IMG/VR virus record: IMGVR_UViG_2547132488_000014
Location: 1 to 11,916 of that record
Direction: 5' to 3' (one strand)
Source: a virus
Taxonomy: Duplodnaviria > Heunggongvirae > Uroviricota > Caudoviricetes
DNA: 11,916 bases
Shown here in pieces: positions 1 to 11,916 of this stretch; positions within the stretch are counted from its first letter, which is position 1; every line of letters starts with the position of its first letter. Both the position numbers and the translations under genes were made by a program. The notes beneath the pieces were generated by a model that saw only the letters and a program-made list of their open reading frames with translations, ran no database searches and was not told the origin of the DNA.

Positions 1-501
1 TTTTATTGTCTCAGGGTTGAGATTTTTTTCTTCAAATTGTTTAGCATCGCCAGATAAAAATTTATTAAACTTAGTTAGTTCGCCTGCAGGAACAGTTCTT
101 TGTATTTCTACATATACAACATTTCGCTCTGGGAAATTATCTCTGCGCCATTTCATCTGTTTAAATTTTGCAGTCCTGTTAATATTTTTATCTTTTGAAA
201 TAGGCTTGTCAGTCAATTCGAATCCAATTTCCCAATCACTCATTGAATCATCCCCATAAAATGATTTAGGGAAAAACTTGCTTGGCTTAACATTTTTATA
301 AGCGAGAGCTACAGCACCTAATATAGTCGACTTCCCTCCACCATTAGTCCCGATAAGAGCTGTAACTGGTGTTTTAAACTCCACAATTTCCTCATCAAAC
401 CCTCTGACATTTTTTAATGTGATACGTTTAACATATTGATTGAATTTATTATCTTGAACCTTACCCCTTTCTAACTTCAATTCTGCTGGAGATAATTTCA
501 T
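1..501 (-). CDS. P-loop NTPase with SMC/ABC-type Walker A motif; N-terminal 167 codons only, 3' end beyond the left window edge
   Basis: Manual minus-strand translation from ATG (499-501) is open to position 1: MKLSPAELKLERGKVQDNKFNQYVKRITLKNVRGFDEEIVEFKTPVTALIGTNGGGKSTILGAVALAYKN... Walker A GTNGGGKST. AAGGA Shine-Dalgarno about 6-8 nt upstream; in-frame stop immediately upstream (511-513). Absent from the ORF track because it has no stop inside the window. Visibly AT-rich compared with the tail genes. Confidence 0.65.
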   Translation of the reverse strand, partial: MKLSPAELKLERGKVQDNKFNQYVKRITLKNVRGFDEEIVEFKTPVTALIGTNGGGKSTILGAVALAYKNVKPSKFFPKSFYGDDSMSDWEIGFELTDKPISKDKNINRTAKFKQMKWRRDNFPERNVVYVEIQRTVPAGELTKFNKFLSGDAKQFEEKNLNPETIK

Positions 502-534
502 TTTAATTCCTTAGTTATAATCACAATAAACATC

Positions 535-579
535 AACTTCACACTAATAATTTCATTTAGAAATTATTAGTGTGAAGTT
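535..579. repeat. Perfect inverted repeat: 20-bp arms (535-554 and 560-579) around a 5-bp spacer
   Basis: AACTTCACACTAATAATTTC / attta / GAAATTATTAGTGTGAAGTT; arms are exact reverse complements. Lies 34-78 bp upstream of the ATPase start codon, so a candidate operator or insulating hairpin. Confidence 0.9.
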
Positions 580-596
580 TATAACCAAACAGACGT

Positions 597-668
597 TTCA
601 TCGCTTCATCGCTTCATCGCTTCATCGCTTCATCGCTTCATCGCTTCATCGCTTCATCGCTTCATCGC
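597..668. repeat. Tandem array of nine perfect copies of the octamer TTCATCGC (GCGATGAA on the - strand)
   Basis: Direct reading: units start at 597, 605, 613, 621, 629, 637, 645, 653, 661, with partial units on both flanks. Intergenic, 96-167 bp upstream of the ATPase start. No intervening spacers, so not a CRISPR array. Confidence 0.95.
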
Positions 669-887
669 TTACCAATATATGTCTTCTCGTTACATAAGAA
701 AAGCATCAGCTGAACGTAATGTCGGAAGCCCCATTGGAAAACCGTCACACCTAATAAATTCAGTACGTTATAAAACAGGGTTGTGATATTTTAAGCCAGT
801 ACCCATGCTAGTAAATATCTACTTAATACATTGATTTTTATGTGTTAAATAAAATCGTTGCCTACATATTGCCTCACTTCGACAGTA

Positions 888-907
888 AGCCCGCAACGTT
901 GCGGGCT
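888..907 (-). terminator. Palindromic GC-rich hairpin 5 nt downstream of the methyltransferase stop codon; putative terminator
   Basis: AGCCCGCAACGTTGCGGGCT is a perfect 20-bp palindrome. The U-tract is better in the + direction (TTTGTCTT) than in the - direction, so terminator function for the - strand operon is uncertain. Confidence 0.45.
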
Positions 908-912
908 TTGTC

Positions 913-1704
913 TTATGCTTCGATCGCCGTTTTGAGCCGTTGTGTTGCTACATCAAAATAATGATCACTGGTTTCTATACCAATAAATTTGCGTCCTGCT
1001 TTCAGCGCTGCAACACCCGTTGTTCCCGATCCCATAAAAGGATCAAGGACTGTTCCACCACTATTCGCAGTCCTGACCAGTTCTGCCATAAGTTCTTCTG
1101 GTTTTCCGGTCGGGTGCATTTTCTTTGATGGGATAACCGGGAACGTCATGCAGCCGTCGAACGGTCCCGAAGGCGATTTATCTAAATGGCCTTTACTGCC
1201 CCAGACGATGTATTCGCACTGATGCCGGAAATACCCCGTATGGGGTGTTCGTGACCCCCTTCCTTTGTTCCACGCAATGATGCCGCGCCATGTAAAGCCA
1301 CTGGCCTGAAACGCATCGGTTAAAGCTGGTAATTGTCGCCAGTCAGTAAATACCAGGGCATAACCGCCCGGCCTGACTGCGCGGTGTGCCTGTGCCATCC
1401 ATAATTGTGTCCAGTAAGCCCACGAACGGGCGTCCATGTTTTCACCCGCGAACCCATCAAAACGGTGAAGGCTCTCGCCGTTCAGATATTTTGCATGGCT
1501 GCCCTGGTTGGTGCGTCCGGCCTTGTGTGTCGCACCCGAACTGTAAGGCGGGTCAGTGATTAAGGCATCAATGCTTTCTGGCTCAATCAGCGGCAATATT
1601 TCCAGCGCATTCCCACGACAGAGCGTGGCATTGTCAGTCTGATAAACCTTAGTGTGTTCCGGTGTATGTGCTGGTTGGTGCTGGATTGCGATCCCCACGG
1701 TCAT
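913..1704 (-). CDS. DNA amino-methyltransferase, beta-class (N6-adenine or N4-cytosine), orphan: no cognate restriction gene in the window
   Basis: 263-aa ORF with motif IV DPPY (ITDPPYSS) N-terminal to motif I FxGxG (DPFMGSGTT), the circularly permuted order typical of beta-class N6A/N4C methyltransferases. ATG at 1702-1704. Confidence 0.88.
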   Translation of the reverse strand: MTVGIAIQHQPAHTPEHTKVYQTDNATLCRGNALEILPLIEPESIDALITDPPYSSGATHKAGRTNQGSHAKYLNGESLHRFDGFAGENMDARSWAYWTQLWMAQAHRAVRPGGYALVFTDWRQLPALTDAFQASGFTWRGIIAWNKGRGSRTPHTGYFRHQCEYIVWGSKGHLDKSPSGPFDGCMTFPVIPSKKMHPTGKPEELMAELVRTANSGGTVLDPFMGSGTTGVAALKAGRKFIGIETSDHYFDVATQRLKTAIEA

Positions 1705-1846
1705 AACTCCTCATGTGTGTGGGGTGCTCGATGGCTCTCGTTATCTGGTTAAGTGTTTTGCAGCGCGGACATTTTATTTCAATGTAGTGAAATGAGGCGC
1801 GGGCAAGTAGTTTGTTGCAATTTTTGCATCGTACATTTTGCGTCAT
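1649..1846 (-). CDS. com: Com-like zinc-finger protein (phage Mu Com family translational activator), overlapping the methyltransferase start
   Basis: Translation MTQNVRCKNCNKLLARASFHYIEIKCPRCKTLNQI... has a CxxC-N16-CxxC zinc ribbon closely resembling Mu Com as recalled (RCKNCNKLL...HIEI.CPRCK). ATG at 1844-1846 with AGAGG Shine-Dalgarno 8 nt upstream; an in-frame GTG at 1853-1855 is the alternative start. Stop at 1649-1651 is 55 nt inside the methyltransferase ORF, in a different frame. Confidence 0.7.
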   Translation of the reverse strand: MTQNVRCKNCNKLLARASFHYIEIKCPRCKTLNQITRAIEHPTHMRSYDRGDRNPAPTSTYTGTH

Positions 1847-1893
1847 TTGCGGCACCTCTTGTGTGGTTACTGCTGCCGATATGATAACAAATC

Positions 1894-1928
1894 GATCGTT
1901 TTTATCGATCGGATTTATTGCATCGATC
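1894..1928. promoter_or_regulatory. Cluster of three GATC (Dam) sites, each within ATCGATC, in the presumed promoter region of the com-methyltransferase operon
   Basis: GATC at 1894-1897, 1907-1910 and 1925-1928, embedded in aATCGATCg, tATCGATCg and cATCGATCt. Lies 50-80 bp upstream of the com start on the - strand. Resembles the three-GATC regulatory region upstream of the Mu mom promoter. Confidence 0.4.
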
Positions 1929-1976
1929 TGTTATGCCTATTGCTTATGTATGGTGCCCTCATTTGTGAGGGTAGCA

Positions 1977-2010
1977 AAAAGAAAACCCGCAGTTTTTACG
2001 CTGCGGGTTT
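1977..2010 (-). terminator. Rho-independent terminator downstream of the TM2-domain gene
   Basis: Stem 1985-1992 ACCCGCAG pairs with 2001-2008 CTGCGGGT, extendable by two A:T pairs. On the - strand it is followed by UCUUUUUG. Sits about 25 nt after the TM2 gene stop (2036). Confidence 0.7.
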
Positions 2011-2035
2011 GTTGTTCTGATTCGCCCACTAGGCA

Positions 2036-2332
2036 TTAGCCATATTTGCGGGCAAAGTCTTCATCAGAGGTGCATAGATAGATAAAAAACTCAATAAATG
2101 CCACGATTGCCGGAATGAATGTCCAGCAAAAAATAAGGTAAAGGAATCCTTGCCCCACTTTACCTAAATAAAATTTGTGTGCACCAAGACCACCTAAAAA
2201 GAAAGCCAGTAGTGCGGCTGTCATTCTGCTTTTTGAACTTGCTGTTCTTTGAGGTGCTCCACAATTGGGGCAGGATGTGGCATCTTTATGTATTTCCTTG
2301 CCGCATCCGCGACAAAATACCATTTCACTCAT
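2036..2332 (-). CDS. Small membrane protein with N-terminal zinc ribbon and TM2 domain
   Basis: 98-aa ORF: CRGCGKEIHKDATSCPNCGAP (two CxxC) followed by two hydrophobic helices and a GGLGAHKFYLG motif typical of TM2-domain proteins. AAAGGAAC Shine-Dalgarno upstream of ATG at 2330-2332. Confidence 0.8.
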   Translation of the reverse strand: MSEMVFCRGCGKEIHKDATSCPNCGAPQRTASSKSRMTAALLAFFLGGLGAHKFYLGKVGQGFLYLIFCWTFIPAIVAFIEFFIYLCTSDEDFARKYG

Positions 2333-2467
2333 AAAGAGTTCCTTTCAAATTTAAATAAGCGTTAAGCCCACCACTCTTACTGGTGGGCCTCAATTTAAAT
2401 TTGGGTGCCACTTCGACCATACCTTGGCAACCGATTGACGGGGGATTGCTCCCCCGTCGCGGTTTCC

Positions 2468-2608
2468 TTACTGCTTACACTGTAAGAACGCCGCAAACTC
2501 CGCTCCCCAGAAGCTCATCCGTATTTCACACAGCGAACCGTGTAGCATCCAGATGATGAGGATTACCGTCACGCAGAACGTGATGGCCGTAAGCGATTTT
2601 TGCGACAT
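2468..2608 (-). CDS. hok: Hok/Gef-family type I toxin (small membrane-active killer peptide), 46 aa
   Basis: Manual translation MSQKSLTAITFCVTVILIIWMLHGSLCEIRMSFWGAEFAAFLQCKQ: short polar N-terminus, one transmembrane helix, SLCEIR identical to plasmid R1 Hok, and AAFLxCK tail as in HokA. AAGGAG Shine-Dalgarno about 7 nt upstream of ATG (2606-2608); TAA stop at 2468-2470. Below the length cut-off of the ORF track. Confidence 0.7.
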   Translation of the reverse strand: MSQKSLTAITFCVTVILIIWMLHGSLCEIRMSFWGAEFAAFLQCKQ

Positions 2609-2799
2609 AGCGCTTGCTCCTTTGTTGGAGAGGCGCTAACCTATCACTTGCTTAAGGTAGATATGTTAGGGCCTCGGTTAAACAAAAATGTTTTCCGGGG
2701 CCTTTCCACATCTGGCCTTCGGGTATTCCCTCCGACCATCAGCCGAAAGGCACCCGCGCGTAATCTATCGCTTTTTTGTTACTCCGGCAATTCTGCCTG

Positions 2800-3060
2800 T
2801 TAATTCTGAGGTAAAGGCAAACTCATCTGATTGTTTCCCCTGTGTGAAGCTGGCAGTTCATGCCACGGGATACCTTCTGAAGAGTGAACGCCGGAGGCAT
2901 GTTTCGATGTGAATTTATGGAAAGCTTCCAGTGTTGAGAAGCATACGCCGCATTCCAGATTGTTACACTGGTAATACTTTTGCCGCACGGTGTTTGAATC
3001 ATTTTCCGGACGACTGGTGCGGATACGGGCAGATGCGCCACAAAGCGGACAACGGAACAT
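2800..3060 (-). CDS. ogr: Ogr/Delta-family zinc-finger transcriptional activator of phage late genes
   Basis: Begins MFRCPLCGASARIRTSR...YYQCNNLECGVCF, matching the N-terminus and Cys spacing of P2 Ogr as recalled (MFHCPLC...). Immediately downstream of gpD, as in P2. Confidence 0.85.
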   Translation of the reverse strand: MFRCPLCGASARIRTSRPENDSNTVRQKYYQCNNLECGVCFSTLEAFHKFTSKHASGVHSSEGIPWHELPASHRGNNQMSLPLPQN

Positions 3061-3102
3061 AGCGACCTCCCTTAACGTGGTGCTGCCGCTATTCTAAGTT
3101 GC

Positions 3103-4212
3103 TCACTCTGTTTCCGCTATCCATTCCGGGATTTTTGCCTCAAGCTCAAGCTGCGTGGTAAAGCCGCTGTTATCAATGGTGTGCTCGGCTTTTGCAATAA
3201 TCCAGTCCTGATTATCAATCTCGCTTTTAAATCCTGTTACCGTGCCATGCATTTCGGGGTAGAGTTCTGCACGTCCACGCGCCAGCGTGATGGAGAATGA
3301 TGCGGCTCCGCGTTGTAGCTGCTGCCACTTTGCCGCCGCTGCGCGTCTTGCTGCCTGCTCGTTCTGATAAGTCTTGCGTAACACAAACACATTGCCTTCC
3401 GCGCCTTCCATATAATCACCTTCACGGCTGCTGCTTTTCTCCTTTTTGGGCTTGGGCGGTTTGCGGCGTTTCACGCTGACTTTTTTCTTTTTCCCGTAAT
3501 TAAGATCAAGCCAGTAAGCGCGTACCCCCGTATACGCTTCGCGGTCAGCAATGCGGAACTGATGGCGATCGCCGCTGCTGCGTGTGATGGCAAACGATGG
3601 CAACGGCTGGCCCTGTGCGTTCACGCCGCCGCCGGGCATGATGAATAACAGATTACCGCTTTTTACCGTGGTGATTGCGCCCAGCATTTCCGCCATGCGC
3701 GTAAGGAAGGACATGTCGCTTTCTTCGGTCTGGTCGGCGTGGTCGATTTCGATATCCATCAGCATTTCGCTGATTTGCGGTTTCAGACCATACCGATGAG
3801 CGATGGCGGATACCACACGCTCAACGGTCACATCATGCCAGGACACCTCACGTTTAACGTTAAATTCATCCCGAAAATCTGCGCTTCTGGCTGAAACAGT
3901 CAGCCTGTCCGGCGGTCCTTCGTGAGCGATTTCATCAACAATGTAAGTGCCTTTTTCTGTCAGCGGTTCTCCCTTCCAGCCAATGAGAACCGTCAGGCGC
4001 GCGCCCCGTGGCGGTAGCTGCAACTGACCATCCGCATCATCCAGCATGATGGTGAGCTGGTCCGCCTCAAATCCCCGGTTGTCGGTCAGTGACAGGCTCA
4101 TCAGGCGCTCTGCCACGCCTGACAGCGTTTTACCCTCCGCGAGAATATCAAAATCCGGCATTTTCACGGGGTCTGTGCCCTGACTGAGCAATTGCATGGT
4201 GGTGTCGGTCAT
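3103..4212 (-). CDS. D: Tail protein gpD (P2 late control gene D family)
   Basis: Large ORF directly upstream of ogr on the same strand, about the size of P2 gpD. Start set at the internal ATG (4210-4212; MTDTTMQLL...), preceded by GGGAGGGAG. The ORF-track start at 4344 adds 44 residues with no ribosome-binding site. Confidence 0.85.
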   Translation of the reverse strand: MTDTTMQLLSQGTDPVKMPDFDILAEGKTLSGVAERLMSLSLTDNRGFEADQLTIMLDDADGQLQLPPRGARLTVLIGWKGEPLTEKGTYIVDEIAHEGPPDRLTVSARSADFRDEFNVKREVSWHDVTVERVVSAIAHRYGLKPQISEMLMDIEIDHADQTEESDMSFLTRMAEMLGAITTVKSGNLLFIMPGGGVNAQGQPLPSFAITRSSGDRHQFRIADREAYTGVRAYWLDLNYGKKKKVSVKRRKPPKPKKEKSSSREGDYMEGAEGNVFVLRKTYQNEQAARRAAAAKWQQLQRGAASFSITLARGRAELYPEMHGTVTGFKSEIDNQDWIIAKAEHTIDNSGFTTQLELEAKIPEWIAETE

Positions 4213-4369
4213 CTGCTCCCTCCCTGTGTGGCATGGTCGCATGTGCGTGCGGAGGGGGTTACTGCTTTTTGTTGTCGCCGTGGCGGGAGAATGGCGCAGG
4301 GGTGAGATTGCGCGCGTGGTGGGTGATGATTGTTGCCGAATCATTTAACGGATACAAGGGGCTGAAGCT

Positions 4370-5554
4370 ATGAGTGAAACTCGTTTTCATGGTGCCCGTG
4401 TTACGGAAAATACCGACCTGGTAACAGCGATTAACGATGTTGATTCCAGCGTTATCGGTATCGTGGCAACGGCGGATGATGCGGACGCGAAGCTGTTCCC
4501 GCTGAACAAGCCCACACTGCTGACCCGCGTCAATGACGTGCTGGGAAAATGCGGGACAACGGGGACGCTTTATCGTGCGCTTAAGGCCATCGCAGACCAG
4601 GTGAGCACAAAGGTGATCGTCGTTCGCGTGGCTGAACACAAAGAAGAAGACGGAAAAACGCAGGATCAACTGGTTATCGGTGGTTCTGAATCTGACGGCA
4701 GCTATACGGGGATGTATGCGCTGCTTGTTGCAGAGCAGGATGAAAGCATCGGATACCGTCCGCGTATTCTGGCCGCGCCGGAGCTGGACACGGAGGCGGT
4801 GACAAAATCCCTGTGCGTGATTGCGGGTAAACTGCGCGCGTTTGTGTATGCCTCATGTCACGGCTGTAACACGATGGCTGAGGCAATTACCTACCGCCAG
4901 AAATTCAACGAACGAGAGGTGATGCTCTTATGGCCGGACTTCATCGCCTACAACCCGAAAAGTGGCAAAAACGAAACGTTCCCCGCGCCTGCCTATGCGT
5001 GCGGCCTTCGTGCGTACATTGACCATGAACAGGGCTGGCACAAATCGCTGTCCAACGTTCCGGTTAAAAATGTGCTGGGGATGTCCGGGCATGTGTTCTG
5101 GTCGTTGCAGGCCGAAGACAGTGATGCCAACAGCCTCAACAACAAAGAAATCACGACCATTATTCGTCGCAACGGGTTCCGCTTCTGGGGCAACCGCACA
5201 CCGGAAACGAACGCCTACATCTTTGAGGTGTATACCCGAACCGCACAGGTGCTGGCTGATTCAATTGCGGAAGCGCAGTTTGAAACCATCGACAGTCCGC
5301 TGACGCCTGCGAACGTGAAGGATGTTATCAGCGCCATCAGGGCAAAACTGGATTCACTGGTGACTGCCGGGAAACTGATTGGGGCGTCGTGCTGGTATGA
5401 CGTGGTGGATAACGGCACCACGAATTTACGTCAGGGGCGCGTGCGTATTCGCTACAAATATACGCCAGTTCCCCCGCTGGAAGACATGGAGCTTTACCAG
5501 TCGTTTACTGATGAATTCTTTGGTCCCGCATTTGCGGTGCTGGGAGGTGCCTGA
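4370..5554 (+). CDS. FI: Contractile tail sheath protein (gpFI)
   Basis: 394 aa, first gene of a sheath-tube-chaperone-tape measure-gpU series; size and position as in the P2 FETUD operon. AAGGGG Shine-Dalgarno 9 nt upstream of the ATG. Confidence 0.88.
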   Translation: MSETRFHGARVTENTDLVTAINDVDSSVIGIVATADDADAKLFPLNKPTLLTRVNDVLGKCGTTGTLYRALKAIADQVSTKVIVVRVAEHKEEDGKTQDQLVIGGSESDGSYTGMYALLVAEQDESIGYRPRILAAPELDTEAVTKSLCVIAGKLRAFVYASCHGCNTMAEAITYRQKFNEREVMLLWPDFIAYNPKSGKNETFPAPAYACGLRAYIDHEQGWHKSLSNVPVKNVLGMSGHVFWSLQAEDSDANSLNNKEITTIIRRNGFRFWGNRTPETNAYIFEVYTRTAQVLADSIAEAQFETIDSPLTPANVKDVISAIRAKLDSLVTAGKLIGASCWYDVVDNGTTNLRQGRVRIRYKYTPVPPLEDMELYQSFTDEFFGPAFAVLGGA

Positions 5555-6066
5555 TGGCTGTACCAAAACATCTTCGCTTTTTTACGCTGTTTGTGGATGG
5601 TGAAAACGAAGTGGGTAAGGTGACGTCCGTCACCCTGCCTAAACTGACGCGCAAAACCGACAGCTACCGGGGTGGCGGCATGATGGGAGCGGTAAGTATT
5701 GATCTCGGCCTGGATGACTCCGCGCTTGATGCGAGCTTTGTCATGGGGGGCGCAGTTCGTGAGCTGTTCCTTAAGTATGGCGGCACGATTGACGGCACGC
5801 TGCTGCGTTTTGCGGGTGAATACTACACCGATGCAGAAAGCGACCTGTATGAAGTCGAAATGCGCGGACGTGTGACGGAAATTGATATGGGGGAAGCCAA
5901 ACAGGGCGAAGCCACATCACACACTTACGCCATTAAAAACACCTACTACAAGCTGAGTGTTAACGATCGCCCGTTGTGGGAGATTGACCTGCTGAACTTC
6001 ATCTACCGGAAGGACGGCAAGGACATTGTGCCTGACCGTATCCGTTCCGCGCTTGGGCTTGGCTGA
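5554..6066 (+). CDS. FII: Tail tube protein (gpFII)
   Basis: 170 aa directly after the sheath gene; its ATG overlaps the sheath stop (TGATG), indicating translational coupling; GGGAGGTG upstream. Confidence 0.85.
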   Translation: MAVPKHLRFFTLFVDGENEVGKVTSVTLPKLTRKTDSYRGGGMMGAVSIDLGLDDSALDASFVMGGAVRELFLKYGGTIDGTLLRFAGEYYTDAESDLYEVEMRGRVTEIDMGEAKQGEATSHTYAIKNTYYKLSVNDRPLWEIDLLNFIYRKDGKDIVPDRIRSALGLG

Positions 6067-6120
6067 TAAGTAATATGCAGGCGGCGCAGTGCGTCGCCTC
6101 TGACTGAAAGGAGTTTCCTG

Positions 6121-6486
6121 ATGAAAGAGACGAAAAACATCGATACCGAAAACACGGTAGTTACTGACACTGTGAAAGAAACCAGTGAGCGTGGCGTAAA
6201 ACTTACCCAACCCATTGAGCGAGGCGACGAAAAAATCACGTATGTGGAGATCACCGGGGCTATTGAGCAGGCTGGATCTCTGCGAGATTTGTCGCTGTCT
6301 GATGTGCTGAATCTGAAAGCGGAATCCATGTTTACGCTGCTGTCACGCGTGACATCACCGCGACTGGATGAAGTGACGATCAAAAAAATGGCATCCCGTG
6401 ACTTTATTCAGTTATGTGTGGTTGCCGTAAATTTTTTGAGCGGTGCGGACTCTGGCGGGAAGAACGAACAGGCGACGGAAGCCTGA
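6121..6486 (+). CDS. E: Tail assembly chaperone gpE (zero-frame product)
   Basis: 121-aa ORF between tube and tape measure genes; contains the slippery heptamer near its 3' end. Confidence 0.82.
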   Translation: MKETKNIDTENTVVTDTVKETSERGVKLTQPIERGDEKITYVEITGAIEQAGSLRDLSLSDVLNLKAESMFTLLSRVTSPRLDEVTIKKMASRDFIQLCVVAVNFLSGADSGGKNEQATEA

Positions 6487-6650
6487 TCACGGTTGTGTGC
6501 TTTGAGCACATAGAAGACTTTGTGGCAGATATTGCCGTTATTTTTAACTGGTCGCCCGCCGAAATCTTCATGATGACGCCCGGCGAAGTGGTTAGCTGGC
6601 GTGAGCGGGCGGCACTTCGCAGCGGGAGGGCAGACAATGAAGACTCTTGA
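6121..6650 (+). CDS. E': Tail assembly chaperone E+E', product of a programmed -1 ribosomal frameshift near 6432-6438
   Basis: The -1 frame ORF 6414-6650 overlaps the 3' end of E and ends at TGA 6648-6650, overlapping the tape measure start. The heptamer T TTT TTG sits in X XXY YYZ register in the E frame. Same architecture as P2 E/E'. Confidence 0.75.
6432..6438 (+). other. Slippery heptamer TTTTTTG (programmed -1 frameshift site for E/E')
   Basis: E-frame codons AAT TTT TTG place the heptamer in X XXY YYZ register; the -1 frame is open from this point to 6650. Confidence 0.75.
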
Positions 6651-9444
6651 TATCCGGGTCGCTTTCAGCGCCGTTGACAGGCTGACCCGGCCTGCCGAAA
6701 ACGCCCGCCGCCTGATGGGGCAGTTTGGTGACTCCATCCAGCGAACGCAGGGGGCGATCAAAAATCTCGAGCGTCAGGCGCGTTCATTTGAGCGCGCCCG
6801 CGACGCTGTCAGTAAAGCGGATGCGGGCATCGTGAAAGCACGACGCCAGCTTAACGCCCTTAATCAGTTACAACGCACGGGTACAGTGCTCAGCGAAAAA
6901 CAACAAAAGCTGATGCAGCAGTTAAGCACCCGGCTTGAACGCCTGAATGAATCGCGCACACGGGAAATTCAGAAAATGCGGGAACTTGGCGGAGAGCTGA
7001 AACGCCACGGCATTTCCCTGACAGGCAGCGATAACACCATCCAGCAGGCCATCAGACGCACCGAACAGTACAACAACCAGCTTGAACGCGAACGGCAGGC
7101 GCTTGCGCGTGTAACGCGGGCGCGTGAGCGGTATTCGCGCGCGCAGGAAACCGCGGGAAAACTGAAAACAGGTGGTGCGCTGGCAATTGGTGCGGCAGCG
7201 GCTGGCGGCTATGCTACCGGGCGTTTTTTGCAGCCTGCGATCGGGTTCGGGAAAGAGATGTCCCGCGTTCAGGCACTGACGCGAATCGACCAGAACAGCC
7301 CGCAGTTTAAGGCGCTGCGTGAGCAGGCGTTAAAACTTGGCTCTGAAACGCAGTTCACCGCAGGCGATGCCGCCAGTGGACAGGCATTTCTTGCAATGGC
7401 TGGCTTCACTCCACAGGCCATTCAGGCTGCGCTTCCCGGCGTGCTGAGCATGGCAACGGCTGGCGGTATGGATCTCGGCGAGACGGCAGATATTGGCTCA
7501 AATATCCTGACGCAGTTCGGCCTTTCTGCTGACCAGATGGACCGGGTCGGTGACACACTCACCGCAGCGTTTACCCGTACCAACACTGACCTTCGCGCAC
7601 TGGGCGAAACCATGAAATATGCAGGTCCGGTGGCGGGTAAGCTGGGAATATCGCTGGAGCAGGCCGCAGCGATGGCTGGCGTGCTGGCGAATATGGGCAT
7701 CAGAGGGAGTGATGCCGGGACGGCAATGCGTGCCAGCCTGGCTCGTCTGGCATCACCGCCAAAGGCGGCGGCAGAGGCGCTGAAAGAGCTTGGTGTGGCA
7801 GTTTCTGACGCGAACGGCAAAATGCGCCCGATGGAGGATGTGCTGGCCGACCTTTATAAAGCCACCCGCAAATACGGGGAAGTTGACCGGGTATCCTTCT
7901 TTAAGGACATCGCCGGGGAAGAGGCTTTCACATCGTTTATGGCGCTCGTTGATGCGGCAGGTGACGGTTCCTTACCCAAACTGAGAAAAGAACTTGAAGG
8001 CGCACGCGGTGAGGCTGAACGCACGGCAAAGGTTATGGCCAACAACCTTGATGGCGATCTGAAATCACTCGGCAGTGCATGGGAAGGGTTGCGCATCCGC
8101 ATTGCAGATCTGATTGACGGCCCGCTGCGTTCTGTCACGCAGTGGCTCACGCGGGTGGTATCAAGGGTGACGGCGCTGGCGCAGGCCCATCCGGCACTGA
8201 CGCGCCAGTTACTGATAGCAGGCGGTGCGTTGCTGGCAATGACTGCAACGATTGGCTCGTTGTCGCTGGTTATTGGCGTGCTTCACGGGAAACTGGCCAC
8301 GTTACGTCTTGGTTTTTCTCTCCTGACCGGATCAATGAATGTCGTCAGGGTGCTGCCAGCACTATGGGGAATGGTAACAGGTTCCATCTCGTTGCTGGGT
8401 GGCGCTATCGGGGCGCTGTTCAGTCCGGTCGGATTGATTGTTGCCGCGTTTGTGGCTGCGGCGGTTCTCATCTGGAAATACTGGGAACCCATCAAGGCGT
8501 TTTATGCCGGGGTGTTCAGTGGGATTATGGAACGGCTGGCTCCGTTGCGCGAAACCTTTGAACGGTTTGGTCCTGTTTTTGATGTCGTGCGCGATGGGAT
8601 TATTCAGCTCTTTAACTGGTTTAAATCGCTGCTGTCACCGATGGAGTCCAGCAAGGAAACGCTGGATAAATGTACCAGTGCTGGCGAGATATTCGGTAAC
8701 GTTCTTGGTGGCGCGCTACAGCTTGTTCTGACGCCTGCAAAAATGCTGCTGGATACGCTGGCGTGGATACTTGAAAAACTCGGTGTGCTTCCGGATGAAG
8801 CGGAAAGGGCGAGAAAGAAAATCGAAGACGCACAGCGTGCGGCCATTCTTCAGGACAAGGTTGCCTTGCTTCAGGGGGACCTGGCGAAAATCAATCCGCC
8901 GAAGCCTGTGGAAAATGGCAATGGCACCGGAGGTGATAAACCCAAAGACAATAAACCGCTCACAGACAGCAACACCGGAACGCTACGCAGGCTCAGCAAA
9001 ATTGCTGATAACACAGGTAAGCTGGTTGATGAGACGAAAAAACGCATTGGCCCCGGCGATATTGTCTTTAAGAACCTGCCCCGCGCACTTGCTGTTCGTG
9101 GGGAGTGGCAGGAGCGGAAGATTGCGCAGGTCAGTAAGCCTGCCCCCGCAATTAATATCCCCCCCGTGGTCCCGGCTCCGCTGCCTCCGGCGCTGGTCCC
9201 TGTTGTTGCGGCCAGCTCCCGCCCGGTGGCGGAGGCCATACGATCGCCAGTGGCATCAGTTCCTGTAACTTCCCGTAACCGGGAGCCTGTTGCCTCCGGA
9301 TTTGGTGGTGAAATTCATGTTCATCTGCATAACGTTGTTACGCAGAATCCCCGCGAACTGGCGAAACTGGTCGGTGAAATGGTCAGGGCAGAAATGGAAC
9401 GGCGCGCCCGTGCCGGGCGTGGCAGTTTTTACGATAAAGATTGA
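6637..9444 (+). CDS. T: Tail tape measure protein (gpT)
   Basis: Largest ORF in the window. N-terminal coiled-coil-like region, central Gly/Ala-rich hydrophobic segments, Pro/Ala-rich C-terminal region. Start set at ATG 6637 (MKTLDIRV...), preceded by GGGAGGG, rather than the GTG at 6601. Confidence 0.9.
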   Translation: MKTLDIRVAFSAVDRLTRPAENARRLMGQFGDSIQRTQGAIKNLERQARSFERARDAVSKADAGIVKARRQLNALNQLQRTGTVLSEKQQKLMQQLSTRLERLNESRTREIQKMRELGGELKRHGISLTGSDNTIQQAIRRTEQYNNQLERERQALARVTRARERYSRAQETAGKLKTGGALAIGAAAAGGYATGRFLQPAIGFGKEMSRVQALTRIDQNSPQFKALREQALKLGSETQFTAGDAASGQAFLAMAGFTPQAIQAALPGVLSMATAGGMDLGETADIGSNILTQFGLSADQMDRVGDTLTAAFTRTNTDLRALGETMKYAGPVAGKLGISLEQAAAMAGVLANMGIRGSDAGTAMRASLARLASPPKAAAEALKELGVAVSDANGKMRPMEDVLADLYKATRKYGEVDRVSFFKDIAGEEAFTSFMALVDAAGDGSLPKLRKELEGARGEAERTAKVMANNLDGDLKSLGSAWEGLRIRIADLIDGPLRSVTQWLTRVVSRVTALAQAHPALTRQLLIAGGALLAMTATIGSLSLVIGVLHGKLATLRLGFSLLTGSMNVVRVLPALWGMVTGSISLLGGAIGALFSPVGLIVAAFVAAAVLIWKYWEPIKAFYAGVFSGIMERLAPLRETFERFGPVFDVVRDGIIQLFNWFKSLLSPMESSKETLDKCTSAGEIFGNVLGGALQLVLTPAKMLLDTLAWILEKLGVLPDEAERARKKIEDAQRAAILQDKVALLQGDLAKINPPKPVENGNGTGGDKPKDNKPLTDSNTGTLRRLSKIADNTGKLVDETKKRIGPGDIVFKNLPRALAVRGEWQERKIAQVSKPAPAINIPPVVPAPLPPALVPVVAASSRPVAEAIRSPVASVPVTSRNREPVASGFGGEIHVHLHNVVTQNPRELAKLVGEMVRAEMERRARAGRGSFYDKD

Positions 9445-9450
9445 GGAGTC

Positions 9451-9945
9451 ATGGCCATGATGATGATCTACGGCATGTTTGTTTTTGAGCTGCGCACGTT
9501 GCCGCATCAGCAGTTACAGCAAAACAAAAGCTGGCGGCATGTGAAAAATGAACGCGTTAACCGTTCAGCAAGCTGGCAGTATATCGGGGCAGGCGATGAT
9601 CGCATCGTTCTTTCTGGTGTGCTTTATCCTGAAATTACAGGTGGCGAAGTGTCGCTTTCGTTGCTGACCACACAGGCATATACAGGACGCCCCTGGCCTC
9701 TGATTGATGGTGTCGGGCAGATTTACGGCATGTATGTCCTGACCGGAACGAATACGACCCATTCCGAGTTTGATCGCTACGGTAAGGCGAAAAAGATAGA
9801 ATTTTCACTGACCCTTGAACGCTGTGATGAGGATTTGCGGGGGCGCCTGCAATCCTCATCGTTCAGCGATATGCTGTCCGGCTTCAAAGATAAGGTGACA
9901 GCATCCATTAACAACGCGGCCAGTTCAGTTAAAGGGCTGTTCTGA
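9451..9945 (+). CDS. U: Tail protein gpU
   Basis: 164-aa ORF directly after the tape measure gene, GAGGAG upstream. Start is ambiguous among ATGs at 9451, 9457, 9460 and 9463 (MAMMMIYGMFVFELRT...). Confidence 0.78.
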   Translation: MAMMMIYGMFVFELRTLPHQQLQQNKSWRHVKNERVNRSASWQYIGAGDDRIVLSGVLYPEITGGEVSLSLLTTQAYTGRPWPLIDGVGQIYGMYVLTGTNTTHSEFDRYGKAKKIEFSLTLERCDEDLRGRLQSSSFSDMLSGFKDKVTASINNAASSVKGLF

Positions 9946-9946
9946 T

Positions 9947-10159
9947 TTGGAAGAGCAGAGGCAGCAGGCGGAAAATGAAAAGCAAAGCCTGCTACAGCTC
10001 GTCAGGGATAAAACCCAGCTATGGGACTCACAGCTACGGCTGGGCATCATTTCCGACGAGAATAAACAAAAATTAACCGAGTGGATGCTCTATGCGCAGA
10101 AGGTCGAATCCACAGACACCTCCAGCCTGCCAGTAACGTTTCCAGAACAACCAGAATGA
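9947..10159 (+). pseudogene. Truncated tail fiber assembly protein (Tfa) C-terminal fragment, no ATG start
   Basis: The 70-residue reading frame (..QQAENEKQSLLQLVRDKTQLWDSQLRLGIISDENKQKLTEWMLYAQKVESTDTSSLPVTFPEQPE) aligns with the C-terminus of the intact Tfa on the other strand (..[63 protein letters not shown]). Frame is open only from 9899, has no ATG (first candidate is TTG at 9947, 1 nt after the gpU stop), and lacks the N-terminal two thirds. Confidence 0.6.
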
Positions 10160-10162
10160 AAC

Positions 10163-10189
10163 AAGGCCCGCTATCGGGCCTTAATTTTT
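10163..10189. terminator. Bidirectional Rho-independent terminator between the convergent Tfa fragment and Tfa
   Basis: Perfect 8-bp stem AAGGCCCG / CGGGCCTT with loop CTAT, followed on the + strand by AATTTTTATT. Lies 3 nt after the + strand stop and 5 nt after the Tfa stop on the - strand. Confidence 0.7.
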
Positions 10190-10715
10190 ATTCAGGCTTT
10201 TGTGGCCATTCAGGATTTGCCGTATCCACACGGCTGACCAGAACGCTGTAGCGTTCCCATGCTTCCAGTCGTGTGCGTTCCTCGTCTGTTGCCATATTCA
10301 GCCTGACAGCGCGTTCCAGCGGCTGGATGACTGATTCAGCTTCGGAAATCAACGCGGCCTTTTGTGATTCGGCCTGTTGTTGCTGTTCGTCAGCCGTATA
10401 AATCCGCTTAATCACAGCACCATCCTTAAACATCCATTTACCTGAGTCATCAGCACGTCGGTTGGCGGTAATATCAGGAACCTCGACAACGCTAAAACCT
10501 TCAGGGTTAAGCGTGGAGGCATCTTTGGTGATGGCGACAATAATATTATTTTCGTCGTATACAATCTTTATGGTGTCGTCCTGAAAGTTATTTACTTCCT
10601 CATACCAGTTTTTACCGTCTTCTGTATATAACCAGATAACATCAAAATTCTTTGTTAGCTGACATTGCTCTTTTGTTTTTGGATTTCCTGACTTAATATT
10701 TTTTAAATGCTGCAT
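10188..10715 (-). CDS. G: Tail fiber assembly protein (Tfa; P2 gpG / Mu U family)
   Basis: 175 aa with the conserved Tfa C-terminus (...[27 protein letters not shown]). ATG 3 nt after the tail fiber stop (TAA ATT ATG), AGGTG upstream. Confidence 0.88.
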
Positions 10716-10718
10716 AAT

Positions 10719-11916
10719 TTACACCTGTGCGACGTTATACCATGTGCCATTGATGTATTTTTGTATTGGTCTGAAGATGGCTTCATCATCGCCATCTACT
10801 TCACCAATGATTCTTAATCCGGTAATTGCGTGTCCGGCTTTTTCATAACGACCACCACGCGCCATCAATTGAACAACACGCGTACCCAGGCGAACATCTT
10901 TCACATAACGGGAATCAAAGTTACCGTAATCCGAGGGGTTAACACGCCCTGTAATATTTATGGTTTTATTACTTTGAATGCTGCCGGAGACAAAGCGCAT
11001 AACATGGACGTTATTAGCATAAACGTCCAGATTACCGTCGCCATTTTGTTTAAAGCCCGTGTCATTATCACCCAAAACAATCGAGTTACCGCCAAGAGCA
11101 CTGGATGTTCCGATACCCAGTGCACCATTCAATTGACCACCAGATAATGACAACGCCCCAACATCAGCAGCAGTCGGTTTTATGTGCGAACTGTAAATTA
11201 CATATACAGTCCCATCTGTCAGGCCTGTCGGTTTATTCGCTGTATAAGTTGGTGATGTATGAATTTGTACAGTGGCATCCTTTGTATAATCCCACTGGAT
11301 ATTAACACCCGTGGCGTAATTACCTATTTCTACATAAATGTCATAGGTATCACCGGATGTATTCACCCATGCAAAATTAGTAAATCCAACCGAGGTCCGT
11401 CGCCATAATGCACCAGTAATACCCTTTGGATTTCCATTTCCGGCACGCAGAACCAGCTCAGAGATGCCTGCTTGCTGCGGGGAGCCAACGTTATACCCTG
11501 CACCACCAATCAGACTTATGTAAACCACGGAACTGGCTTGTGGCATTGTTACAGTTGCCAGTTTGAACCATCCAGCACCACCACTAAAAGACATGGTTGT
11601 TGAATTTGTTGTGCCGATATTACGCAGGAATAGTTTTTTATCGGGAATATCTGCGCCGTTCTGGTTTTTCTGTAATGCGCCAGAAGCCTGATTTACCGTT
11701 TCCTGTAAACCGAGGTATTCGATAACGGCGGCAACGGTCGATTTCGCAAGAATATCCCGCCCTACTTTTGTCAGAGTTGCCAGGCTGGCGACATCATTCC
11801 CCGTAAAATACGGAAACCTGTCTGCCGCAGTAGCAAGCCCGGCCAGCGCCGTCAGGGTGGCATCTTTCGGTTGCTTACCCGCAAGCGCGTTAGTCATGGT
11901 GGTCGCAAAATTCGGG
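10719..11916 (-). CDS. H: Tail fiber protein (P2 gpH-like), C-terminal part; 5' end lies beyond the right window edge
   Basis: Frame is open to the window edge with no stop upstream of the listed Met at 11897, so the gene is 5'-truncated by the window. Contains the tail-fiber junction motif ...LTALAGLATAADRFPYFTGNDVASLATLTKVGRDILAKSTVAAVIEYLGLQET... followed by a Gly/Ser/Thr/Asn-rich distal region. Directly upstream of Tfa. Confidence 0.85.
   Translation of the reverse strand, partial: PNFATTMTNALAGKQPKDATLTALAGLATAADRFPYFTGNDVASLATLTKVGRDILAKSTVAAVIEYLGLQETVNQASGALQKNQNGADIPDKKLFLRNIGTTNSTTMSFSGGAGWFKLATVTMPQASSVVYISLIGGAGYNVGSPQQAGISELVLRAGNGNPKGITGALWRRTSVGFTNFAWVNTSGDTYDIYVEIGNYATGVNIQWDYTKDATVQIHTSPTYTANKPTGLTDGTVYVIYSSHIKPTAADVGALSLSGGQLNGALGIGTSSALGGNSIVLGDNDTGFKQNGDGNLDVYANNVHVMRFVSGSIQSNKTINITGRVNPSDYGNFDSRYVKDVRLGTRVVQLMARGGRYEKAGHAITGLRIIGEVDGDDEAIFRPIQKYINGTWYNVAQV
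11700..11725. other. gix/cix/pix-like 26-bp sequence (candidate Gin/Pin-family DNA invertase crossover site) inside the tail fiber gene
   Basis: TTCCTGTAAACC GA GGTATTCGATAA compared with the Mu gix site as recalled (TTCCTGTAAACC GA GGTTTTGGATAA): 24 of 26 identical. Encodes the IEYLGLQE junction of the fiber protein. Confidence 0.45.

Follow-up and report, generated by a model that had tools for sequence, protein, structure and literature searches.

A probable single-protein ATPase–Toprim anti-phage gene of the HEC-04 family, carried as cargo at the ogr–attP end of a P2-like prophage

Background: ATPase–Toprim defences

HEC-04 (Hma-embedded candidate 4) was discovered inside Hma (helicase–methylase–ATPase) systems (bioRxiv 10.1101/2024.01.29.577857). 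Cloned from E. coli MOD1-EC5853, it lowered the plating of several coliphages and was toxic upon IPTG induction, and its defence activity was lost in K62A and E319A/D375A/D377A mutants; its metal site has been compared with that of the DNA-cleaving Burkholderia OLD (bioRxiv 10.1101/2024.01.29.577857). HEC-04 acts on T4, T5 and other coliphages, whereas T7 and lambda lie outside its range (PMC12111858). HEC-04 is also related to the plasmid protein IbfA, which aborts infection by a P22-like phage and is reported to alter phage transcription without an obvious nuclease phenotype (PMC12111858).

ATPase and Toprim modules are also found together in several other described systems. Class 1 OLD proteins, for which the Thermus scotoductus enzyme provides an example structure (PDB 6p74), carry an ABC ATPase and a Toprim domain with an E...DxD site on one chain, and tRNA cleavage has been reported for the OLD protein of phage P2. 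Gabija combines GajA, an ABC ATPase plus Toprim nuclease, with GajB, a UvrD-like helicase. PARIS consists of two proteins, AriA and AriB, in a large complex, and AriB is reported to cleave tRNA. On triggering, AriB is released.

Here, we describe a gene whose 5′ third lies at the left edge of an 11,916-nucleotide stretch of viral DNA (hereafter the window). We consider it highly probable that positions 501 to 1 are the start of a 489-codon gene for an HEC-04 single-protein ATPase–Toprim defence, carried as cargo by a P2-like prophage. Through this locus, a defence family validated experimentally only once gains a naturally prophage-borne member, whose one-protein ATPase–Toprim solution is that of P2 old, reached in a different sequence family. 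The interest that remains lies in a prophage setting parallel to that of P2 old and in a hypervariable repeat upstream of the gene; otherwise this is a largely ordinary find.

The reading frame at the window edge

The first-pass annotation had placed a minus-strand reading frame of 167 residues between an ATG at 499–501 and position 1, and translation bears this out. The ATG at 501–499 is followed by sense codons, 167 in all, that stay open to position 1. An in-frame TAA lies 12 nt 5′ of this ATG, which makes it the earliest start available (Table 1). The frame is missing from the program-made list of open reading frames only because it runs past the window edge.

A Walker A motif, GTNGGGKST, occupies residues 51–59, with its lysine at K57, and a Q-loop-like motif, EIQRTVPAGE, follows at residues 132–141. 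The 167-residue fragment alone matches Pfam AAA_23 (E = 2.8e-11) and AAA_15 (E = 6.2e-10), scores well above chance. Searched against the PADLOC library, the fragment is matched by HEC-04 at E = 7.9e-69, versus only ~1e-9 to 1e-11 for PtuA, AriA and GajA.

The base composition around the gene is also distinctive. GC content is 0.33–0.35 across window positions 1–800, as against about 0.50–0.60 across the tail genes. The ATPase frame has GC 0.339 and GC3 0.257. The methyltransferase, gpD, FI, FII, T and U genes range over GC 0.50–0.57 and GC3 0.50–0.62, and the gene for tail-fibre assembly falls below them (GC 0.44, GC3 0.43). The AT-richness remarked on at first sight is therefore real relative to most of the neighbouring phage genes.

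Table 1. Features read in the left part of the window
Feature	Position	Strand	Remarks
HEC-04-family gene, 5′ third, codons 1–167 of 489	1..501	−	Walker A and part of ABC head
Ribosome-binding site AAGGAA	507..512	−	5 nt upstream of ATG; direct sequence reading
Perfect inverted repeat, 20-bp arms, 5-nt loop, 45 bp	535..579	.	Ends 33 nt upstream of ATG
Perfect octanucleotide tandem repeat, GCGATGAA on gene strand, CATCGCTT on + strand, 9.2 copies	597..670	−	96 nt 5′ of ATG
Sigma-70 promoter-like site TTTACT-16-TAAAAT	788..815	−	Upstream of repeat; weak consensus match only
Junction segment, 86 bp, right-hand limit of cassette	797..882	.	Recurs in related prophages without the ATPase gene
Terminator-like hairpin	887..908	+	3′ of intact com–methyltransferase operon
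N6_N4 DNA methyltransferase	913-1704	−	PHROGs/Pfam
Com-type zinc-ribbon gene	1649-1855	−	PHROGs/Pfam; overlaps methyltransferase start by 56 nt

The full-length gene in other genomes

Positions 1–900 of the window are 100% identical in five complete E. coli chromosomes and 96–99.9% identical in twelve more. The cassette that holds the gene is thus carried by 17 of 5426 complete E. coli genomes, always on the chromosome and in one copy per genome. A megablast search of positions 1–900 against 50,697 phage records returned no match. No complete E. coli genome matches the entire window exactly, the closest reaching 97.9% over 1–9948, so the gene was reconstructed past position 1 from the genomes that are identical over 1–900. 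In strain EC361, the frame runs on to 489 codons (1470 bp) and its product is annotated as an ‘ATP-dependent nuclease’ (WP_032167339.1). The 1470-bp frame is intact in each of the eight alleles examined, which differ at 0–4 nucleotides, mostly synonymously. An in-frame disruption just beyond the window edge, which the first-pass annotation had named as grounds for calling the gene a pseudogene, is absent from all eight.

An HEC-04 protein with an OLD-like architecture

The full protein matches the PADLOC HEC-04 model (PDLC04149) almost end to end, with residues 2–488 aligned to model positions 5–488 of 494 (E = 1.8e-203, 675 bits). The next matches in that library, to AriA, NsnB, AbiLi, GajA and Old, are restricted to the ATPase part. 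Pfam places AAA_15 and AAA_21 at residues ~24–270. These profile searches agree with both parts of the earlier proposal: the ATPase is of the AAA_15/AAA_21 type, and the suggested defence role is matched by a full-length hit to a family that has been named and tested experimentally.

Residues ~20–290 model as an ABC ATPase of the SMC/Rad50/OLD-like kind, and the C-terminal 190 residues (~300–489) model as a Toprim domain that is nearest to PARIS AriB and the OLD nucleases. The best structural matches of the protein include GajA and OLD nucleases. Pfam assigns no domain to residues ~290–489 of the full protein, and a profile search of PDB sequences with the C-terminal domain returned only noise (E > 0.6). 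When the C-terminal domains of 21 homologues were compared with Pfam, the only matches were sub-threshold ones to DUF4435, in six members (E 0.014–0.11); the DUF4435 score of 12.6 bits lies below the cutoff of 27. The Toprim call thus draws on the predicted fold and the E...DxD motif. As modelled, the effector is this Toprim domain, on the same chain as the ATPase, so no partner gene need be sought.

Conservation was assessed in an alignment of 44 homologues that are 43–78% identical. Invariant positions in the N-terminal part include K57 of Walker A, a signature-like SQFHFGAGE, a pair of glutamates at 235–236 that we read from the sequence as the Walker B region, and H269. E316, H357, N360, D372-G-D374, Q417-R418 and D442/H444 are also invariant.

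Comparison with the experimentally tested HEC-04 protein made use of the first ~400 residues of the latter, taken from supplementary table 2 (bioRxiv 10.1101/2024.01.29.577857). The two are 42% identical over 378 residues, and K57, E316, D372 and D374 align exactly with the mutated K62, E319, D375 and D377. Both are single chains of ~490 residues in which an N-terminal ABC ATPase is fused to a C-terminal Toprim domain and the residues required for defence are kept. Together with the full-length profile match, these features place the protein in HEC-04, a family already catalogued and experimentally validated once. The settings differ: the tested gene is embedded in Hma, whereas the gene described here is cargo at the ogr–attP end of a P2-like prophage and follows an upstream region of its own that carries a 45-bp palindrome and an 8-bp repeat of variable copy number. 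Because 58% of the aligned positions differ, the phage specificity of the two proteins may differ as well.

Similarity to P2 Old is far more restricted. BLASTP aligns only two short ATPase segments (E = 4e-4), one in the Walker A region and one just ahead of the H-loop, and P2 Old is the longer protein by ~100 residues. On the PADLOC Old model the protein described here reaches 52 bits, in the ATPase part only, versus 712 bits for P2 Old itself, and HEC-04 is absent among the top matches listed for P2 Old. An ABC ATPase and a Toprim domain on one chain, with an E...DxD site, is the architecture of class 1 OLD, a likeness at the superfamily level; by sequence, neither the Old profile nor an OLD-type Toprim extends the resemblance over both domains. 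The model scores and the two-segment alignment point to HEC-04 membership and away from Old orthology. Judged by its sequence, then, the protein is an HEC-04 member with an OLD-like architecture and not an Old orthologue.

IbfA of the IncI1 plasmids R64 and pUA1135 is another single ATPase–Toprim protein, of ~518 residues, and it causes an abortive-like interference with P22-like and other phages (PMC12111858). Unlike the gene described here, it is plasmid-borne (IncI), and the proteins are 29% identical over 318 residues; its best PADLOC match is also HEC-04, but at 141 bits versus 675.

The two proteins of PARIS correspond to modules that are fused here. We found neither a separate AriA with a DUF4435-type AriB nor a match to the AriAB profile: the AriA match is partial, and the fused AriAB PADLOC model is absent among the best 25 matches listed for the protein. 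Likewise, GajA is accompanied in Gabija by a helicase gene, and the neighbours here are a methyltransferase gene and a methyltransferase remnant, with no helicase. A Gabija- or PARIS-like two-gene system with its partner past the window edge was discarded because the next features in that direction are a terminator region, the methyltransferase remnant and attL.

A variable cargo locus in a P2-like prophage

PHROGs and Pfam identify the window as a P2-type late region. Besides the genes in Table 1, it encodes a TM2-domain protein, ogr, gpD, the tail sheath FI, the tube FII, a tape-measure protein, gpU and a tail-fibre assembly protein. The pairing of a Mu Com-like gene with a methyltransferase resembles com–mom of phage Mu, with a modification enzyme of a different type.

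The corresponding prophage in EC361 is complete and P2-like, extending from the integrase to the ATPase region between raiA and pheL. A 20-bp direct repeat, CCTTCGGGCGCGTTTTTTGT, flanks it beside raiA and before pheL; this sequence is the raiA terminator and probably also the att core. The ATPase gene lies within the att boundaries, at a distance of about 650 bp from the raiA-side att core. Its description as phage cargo is upheld by this position, and that of a horizontally acquired gene by the same location within a prophage together with the strongly deviant composition.

The gene is part of a low-GC cassette of ~2.0 kb (GC 0.35) between ogr and the attachment site, which extends from the methyltransferase remnant to about window position 796. 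Depending on the strain, the 797–882 segment stands after the methyltransferase, the TM2 gene or hok. The left limit of the cassette is outside the window, ~1.2 kb past position 1, at the remnant. This remnant is the 300-bp 3′ end of a second N6_N4 DNA methyltransferase gene, located between the ATPase gene and the att core (L001, the EC361 locus, 12485–12784); it lies ~1.2–1.5 kb left of position 1 and is 90% identical to window positions 935–1194. A terminator-like hairpin nearly identical to that at 887–908 trails the remnant, on the opposite side of the cassette. The cassette looks as if recombination between diverged P2-like phages had swapped it in, and the 797–882 segment behaves like the conserved boundary of a variable ogr–attP cargo locus.

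Related prophages show several layouts of this region: ogr–hok–TM2–com–methyltransferase–att, ogr–hok–TM2–att and ogr–hok–cassette–remnant–att. In other strains, the cassette and remnant lie beside raiA and adjoin a different element, which encodes a YafO toxin. Matches to the window's P2-like tail region occur in 2785 genomes, as against 17 for the cassette. These varied layouts and counts indicate that ogr–attP is a variable cargo locus and that the cassette is a rare swapped-in module. Such variability agrees with the ‘swap’ dynamics shown by P2/P4 defence hotspots, which in P2 comprise gpA–gpQ, the int–att interval, the int–primase interval and the tail genes (PMC13586616).

Three further observations concern the prophage. 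A hok/gef-family toxin gene lies at window positions ~2468–2608, by annotation of the identical EC361 sequence; a search of the whole window with Rfam at gathering score yielded no Sok-like RNA. In the EC361 prophage, ParM-like and partition/stability genes (L004 28104–29379) occupy the gpA–gpQ hotspot, which in P2 holds tin and old. The tail block FI–FII–E–T–U (4370–9945) is on the strand opposite gpD/ogr (3103–4344) and the tail-fibre genes (10188–11897). On the P2 map, the tail block, gpD/ogr and the tail-fibre genes are all co-directional, and so the block appears inverted here; the arrangement is common to all the related prophages examined.

Homologues elsewhere

HEC-04-type homologues are widespread in Proteobacteria, with 2199 matches, of which the best 120 are mostly 480–500 residues long. 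At the Enterobacter, Xanthomonas and Pantoea loci, the homologues are solo genes without a common neighbour, and no partner gene is conserved beside them. The islands that contain homologues hold, for example, an Mrr-like nuclease, ParD and RhuM, or conjugation genes. The homologues are much lower in GC than their flanks: 0.37 against 0.56–0.58, 0.43 against 0.65–0.67 and 0.36 against 0.47–0.59.

Other P2-like phages carry the gene elsewhere. A 78%-identical homologue is found in the gpA–portal interval of another P2-like phage, the same place as tin/old in P2. In the Burkholderia P2-like phage phiE094, a frameshift has divided the homologue beside the integrase into gp49 and gp48 (L007 2328–5677). 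This split homologue is followed by a cytidine/deoxycytidylate deaminase-family protein of 571 residues. Solo low-GC homologues, together with P2-like phage homologues at gpA–portal and at the integrase, support a one-gene mobile defence module that has been reused by P2-like phages. The family is thus carried by these phages at no fewer than two cargo loci, at least ogr–attP here and gpA–gpQ elsewhere.

Proposed mechanism and alternative readings

Because the gene lies inside the prophage, at its ogr–attP end, it would be expressed from the lysogen and would exclude other phages. In the mechanism that we propose, the ABC head would act as the sensor of a phage cue and, within an oligomer, would hold the Toprim site closed. 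The cue, together with ATP binding or hydrolysis, would open this site, and the Mg-dependent Toprim nuclease would then cut nucleic acid and stop the infection, probably abortively. As the substrate, we tentatively favour host tRNA, an analogy that may or may not hold: PARIS AriB and P2 OLD are both reported to cut tRNA, and AriB is the closest fold to the C-terminal domain. With one gene and a defined native upstream region, the locus offers a compact test case for the question of whether fused ATPase–Toprim defences cut tRNA.

A possible but somewhat unlikely variant is that the activated Toprim domain of the same protein nicks or cleaves phage or host DNA instead of tRNA. Gabija GajA and classical OLD nuclease biochemistry, both represented among the best structural matches, argue for DNA, as does the comparison of the HEC-04 metal site with the Burkholderia enzyme (bioRxiv 10.1101/2024.01.29.577857); the closeness of the C-terminal fold to AriB argues for tRNA.

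We regard as improbable a role in which the gene aids the prophage otherwise, as an addiction-like stabilisation module or as an anti-plasmid or anti-satellite weapon. The toxicity of the tested HEC-04 when induced (bioRxiv 10.1101/2024.01.29.577857) would fit such a role, as would the hok/gef gene of the cargo locus, the YafO toxin that adjoins in other strains and the persistence of the cassette by raiA where the neighbouring element differs. However, homologues have no conserved antitoxin-like partner, phage resistance is the phenotype of both the tested homologue and IbfA, and a close homologue occupies a P2 defence hotspot.

That the genome from which the window derives has the gene only as a truncated or decayed relic, encoding nothing functional, is very improbable. 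The window does stop within the gene and has no exact whole-length match, a methyltransferase pseudogene remnant adjoins the gene in related genomes, and the phiE094 homologue is broken. Yet all 900 bases that are present are identical to those of five genomes with an intact gene, and the eight alleles examined are intact and near-identical.

Least credible of all, and discarded, is a housekeeping or phage-replication ATPase of the SMC/RecF/RecN/Rad50 type without a defence role, the identity that the first-pass annotation had set against its own proposal: NCBIfam scores are confined to the P-loop region and far under the curated whole-protein cutoffs (RecF 26 bits vs 172, Rad50 29 vs 700, MukB 20 vs 699), the protein has a Toprim domain and no coiled coil, and the gene is of foreign composition and present in just 17 of 5426 E. 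coli genomes.

A hypervariable repeat and a palindrome upstream

The ATPase gene is preceded by an octanucleotide tandem repeat and a perfect palindrome (Table 1). Eight other E. coli alleles have 7, 8, 8, 9, 9, 9, 10 and 13 copies of the repeat; EC361, like the window, has nine. Alleles that differ in copy number have coding sequences no more than four bases apart, and alleles with 100% identical flanks have either 9 or 13 copies. Such a spread among near-identical alleles is a signature of slipped-strand mutation, and the sequence comparison suggests that the repeat is hypermutable by slipped-strand events.

The palindrome does not vary among the E. coli alleles examined, and its arm has no second copy in the 43-kb prophage locus. 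It contains a promoter-like TTCACA-18-AATTAT and dominates the predicted fold of the leader (z = −4.45 versus shuffles). The element may be an operator, an attenuator, a 5′-leader hairpin or an insulating hairpin. At gathering score, Rfam assigned no RNA family to any part of the window; for positions 1–1000, a threshold of E ≤ 1 gave only noise.

Palindrome and repeat are both absent upstream of the Enterobacter, Pantoea, Xanthomonas and phiE094 homologues, and also upstream of the 94%-identical Salmonella and 78%-identical P2-like phage alleles. They are thus not a regulatory feature of the family as a whole. It is conceivable, although we think it doubtful, that the GCGATGAA repeat and the palindrome form a contingency switch that sets the expression of a toxic Abi nuclease, so that lysogens would vary in the strength of their defence. 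To our knowledge, few repeat-based switches are known in E. coli. If the switch were real, a defence gene carried by an E. coli prophage would be under phase-variable control. The locus also offers a test case for asking whether a simple-sequence repeat tunes the expression of a toxic immunity gene.

The region upstream of the Salmonella allele (L020 1700–2170) contains about ten GTGA(C/T)GGT / ACC(G/A)TCAC motifs in both orientations. These motifs may be binding sites for a regulator. The window retains a single copy, GGTGTGACGGTTTTCC, at positions ~730–745.
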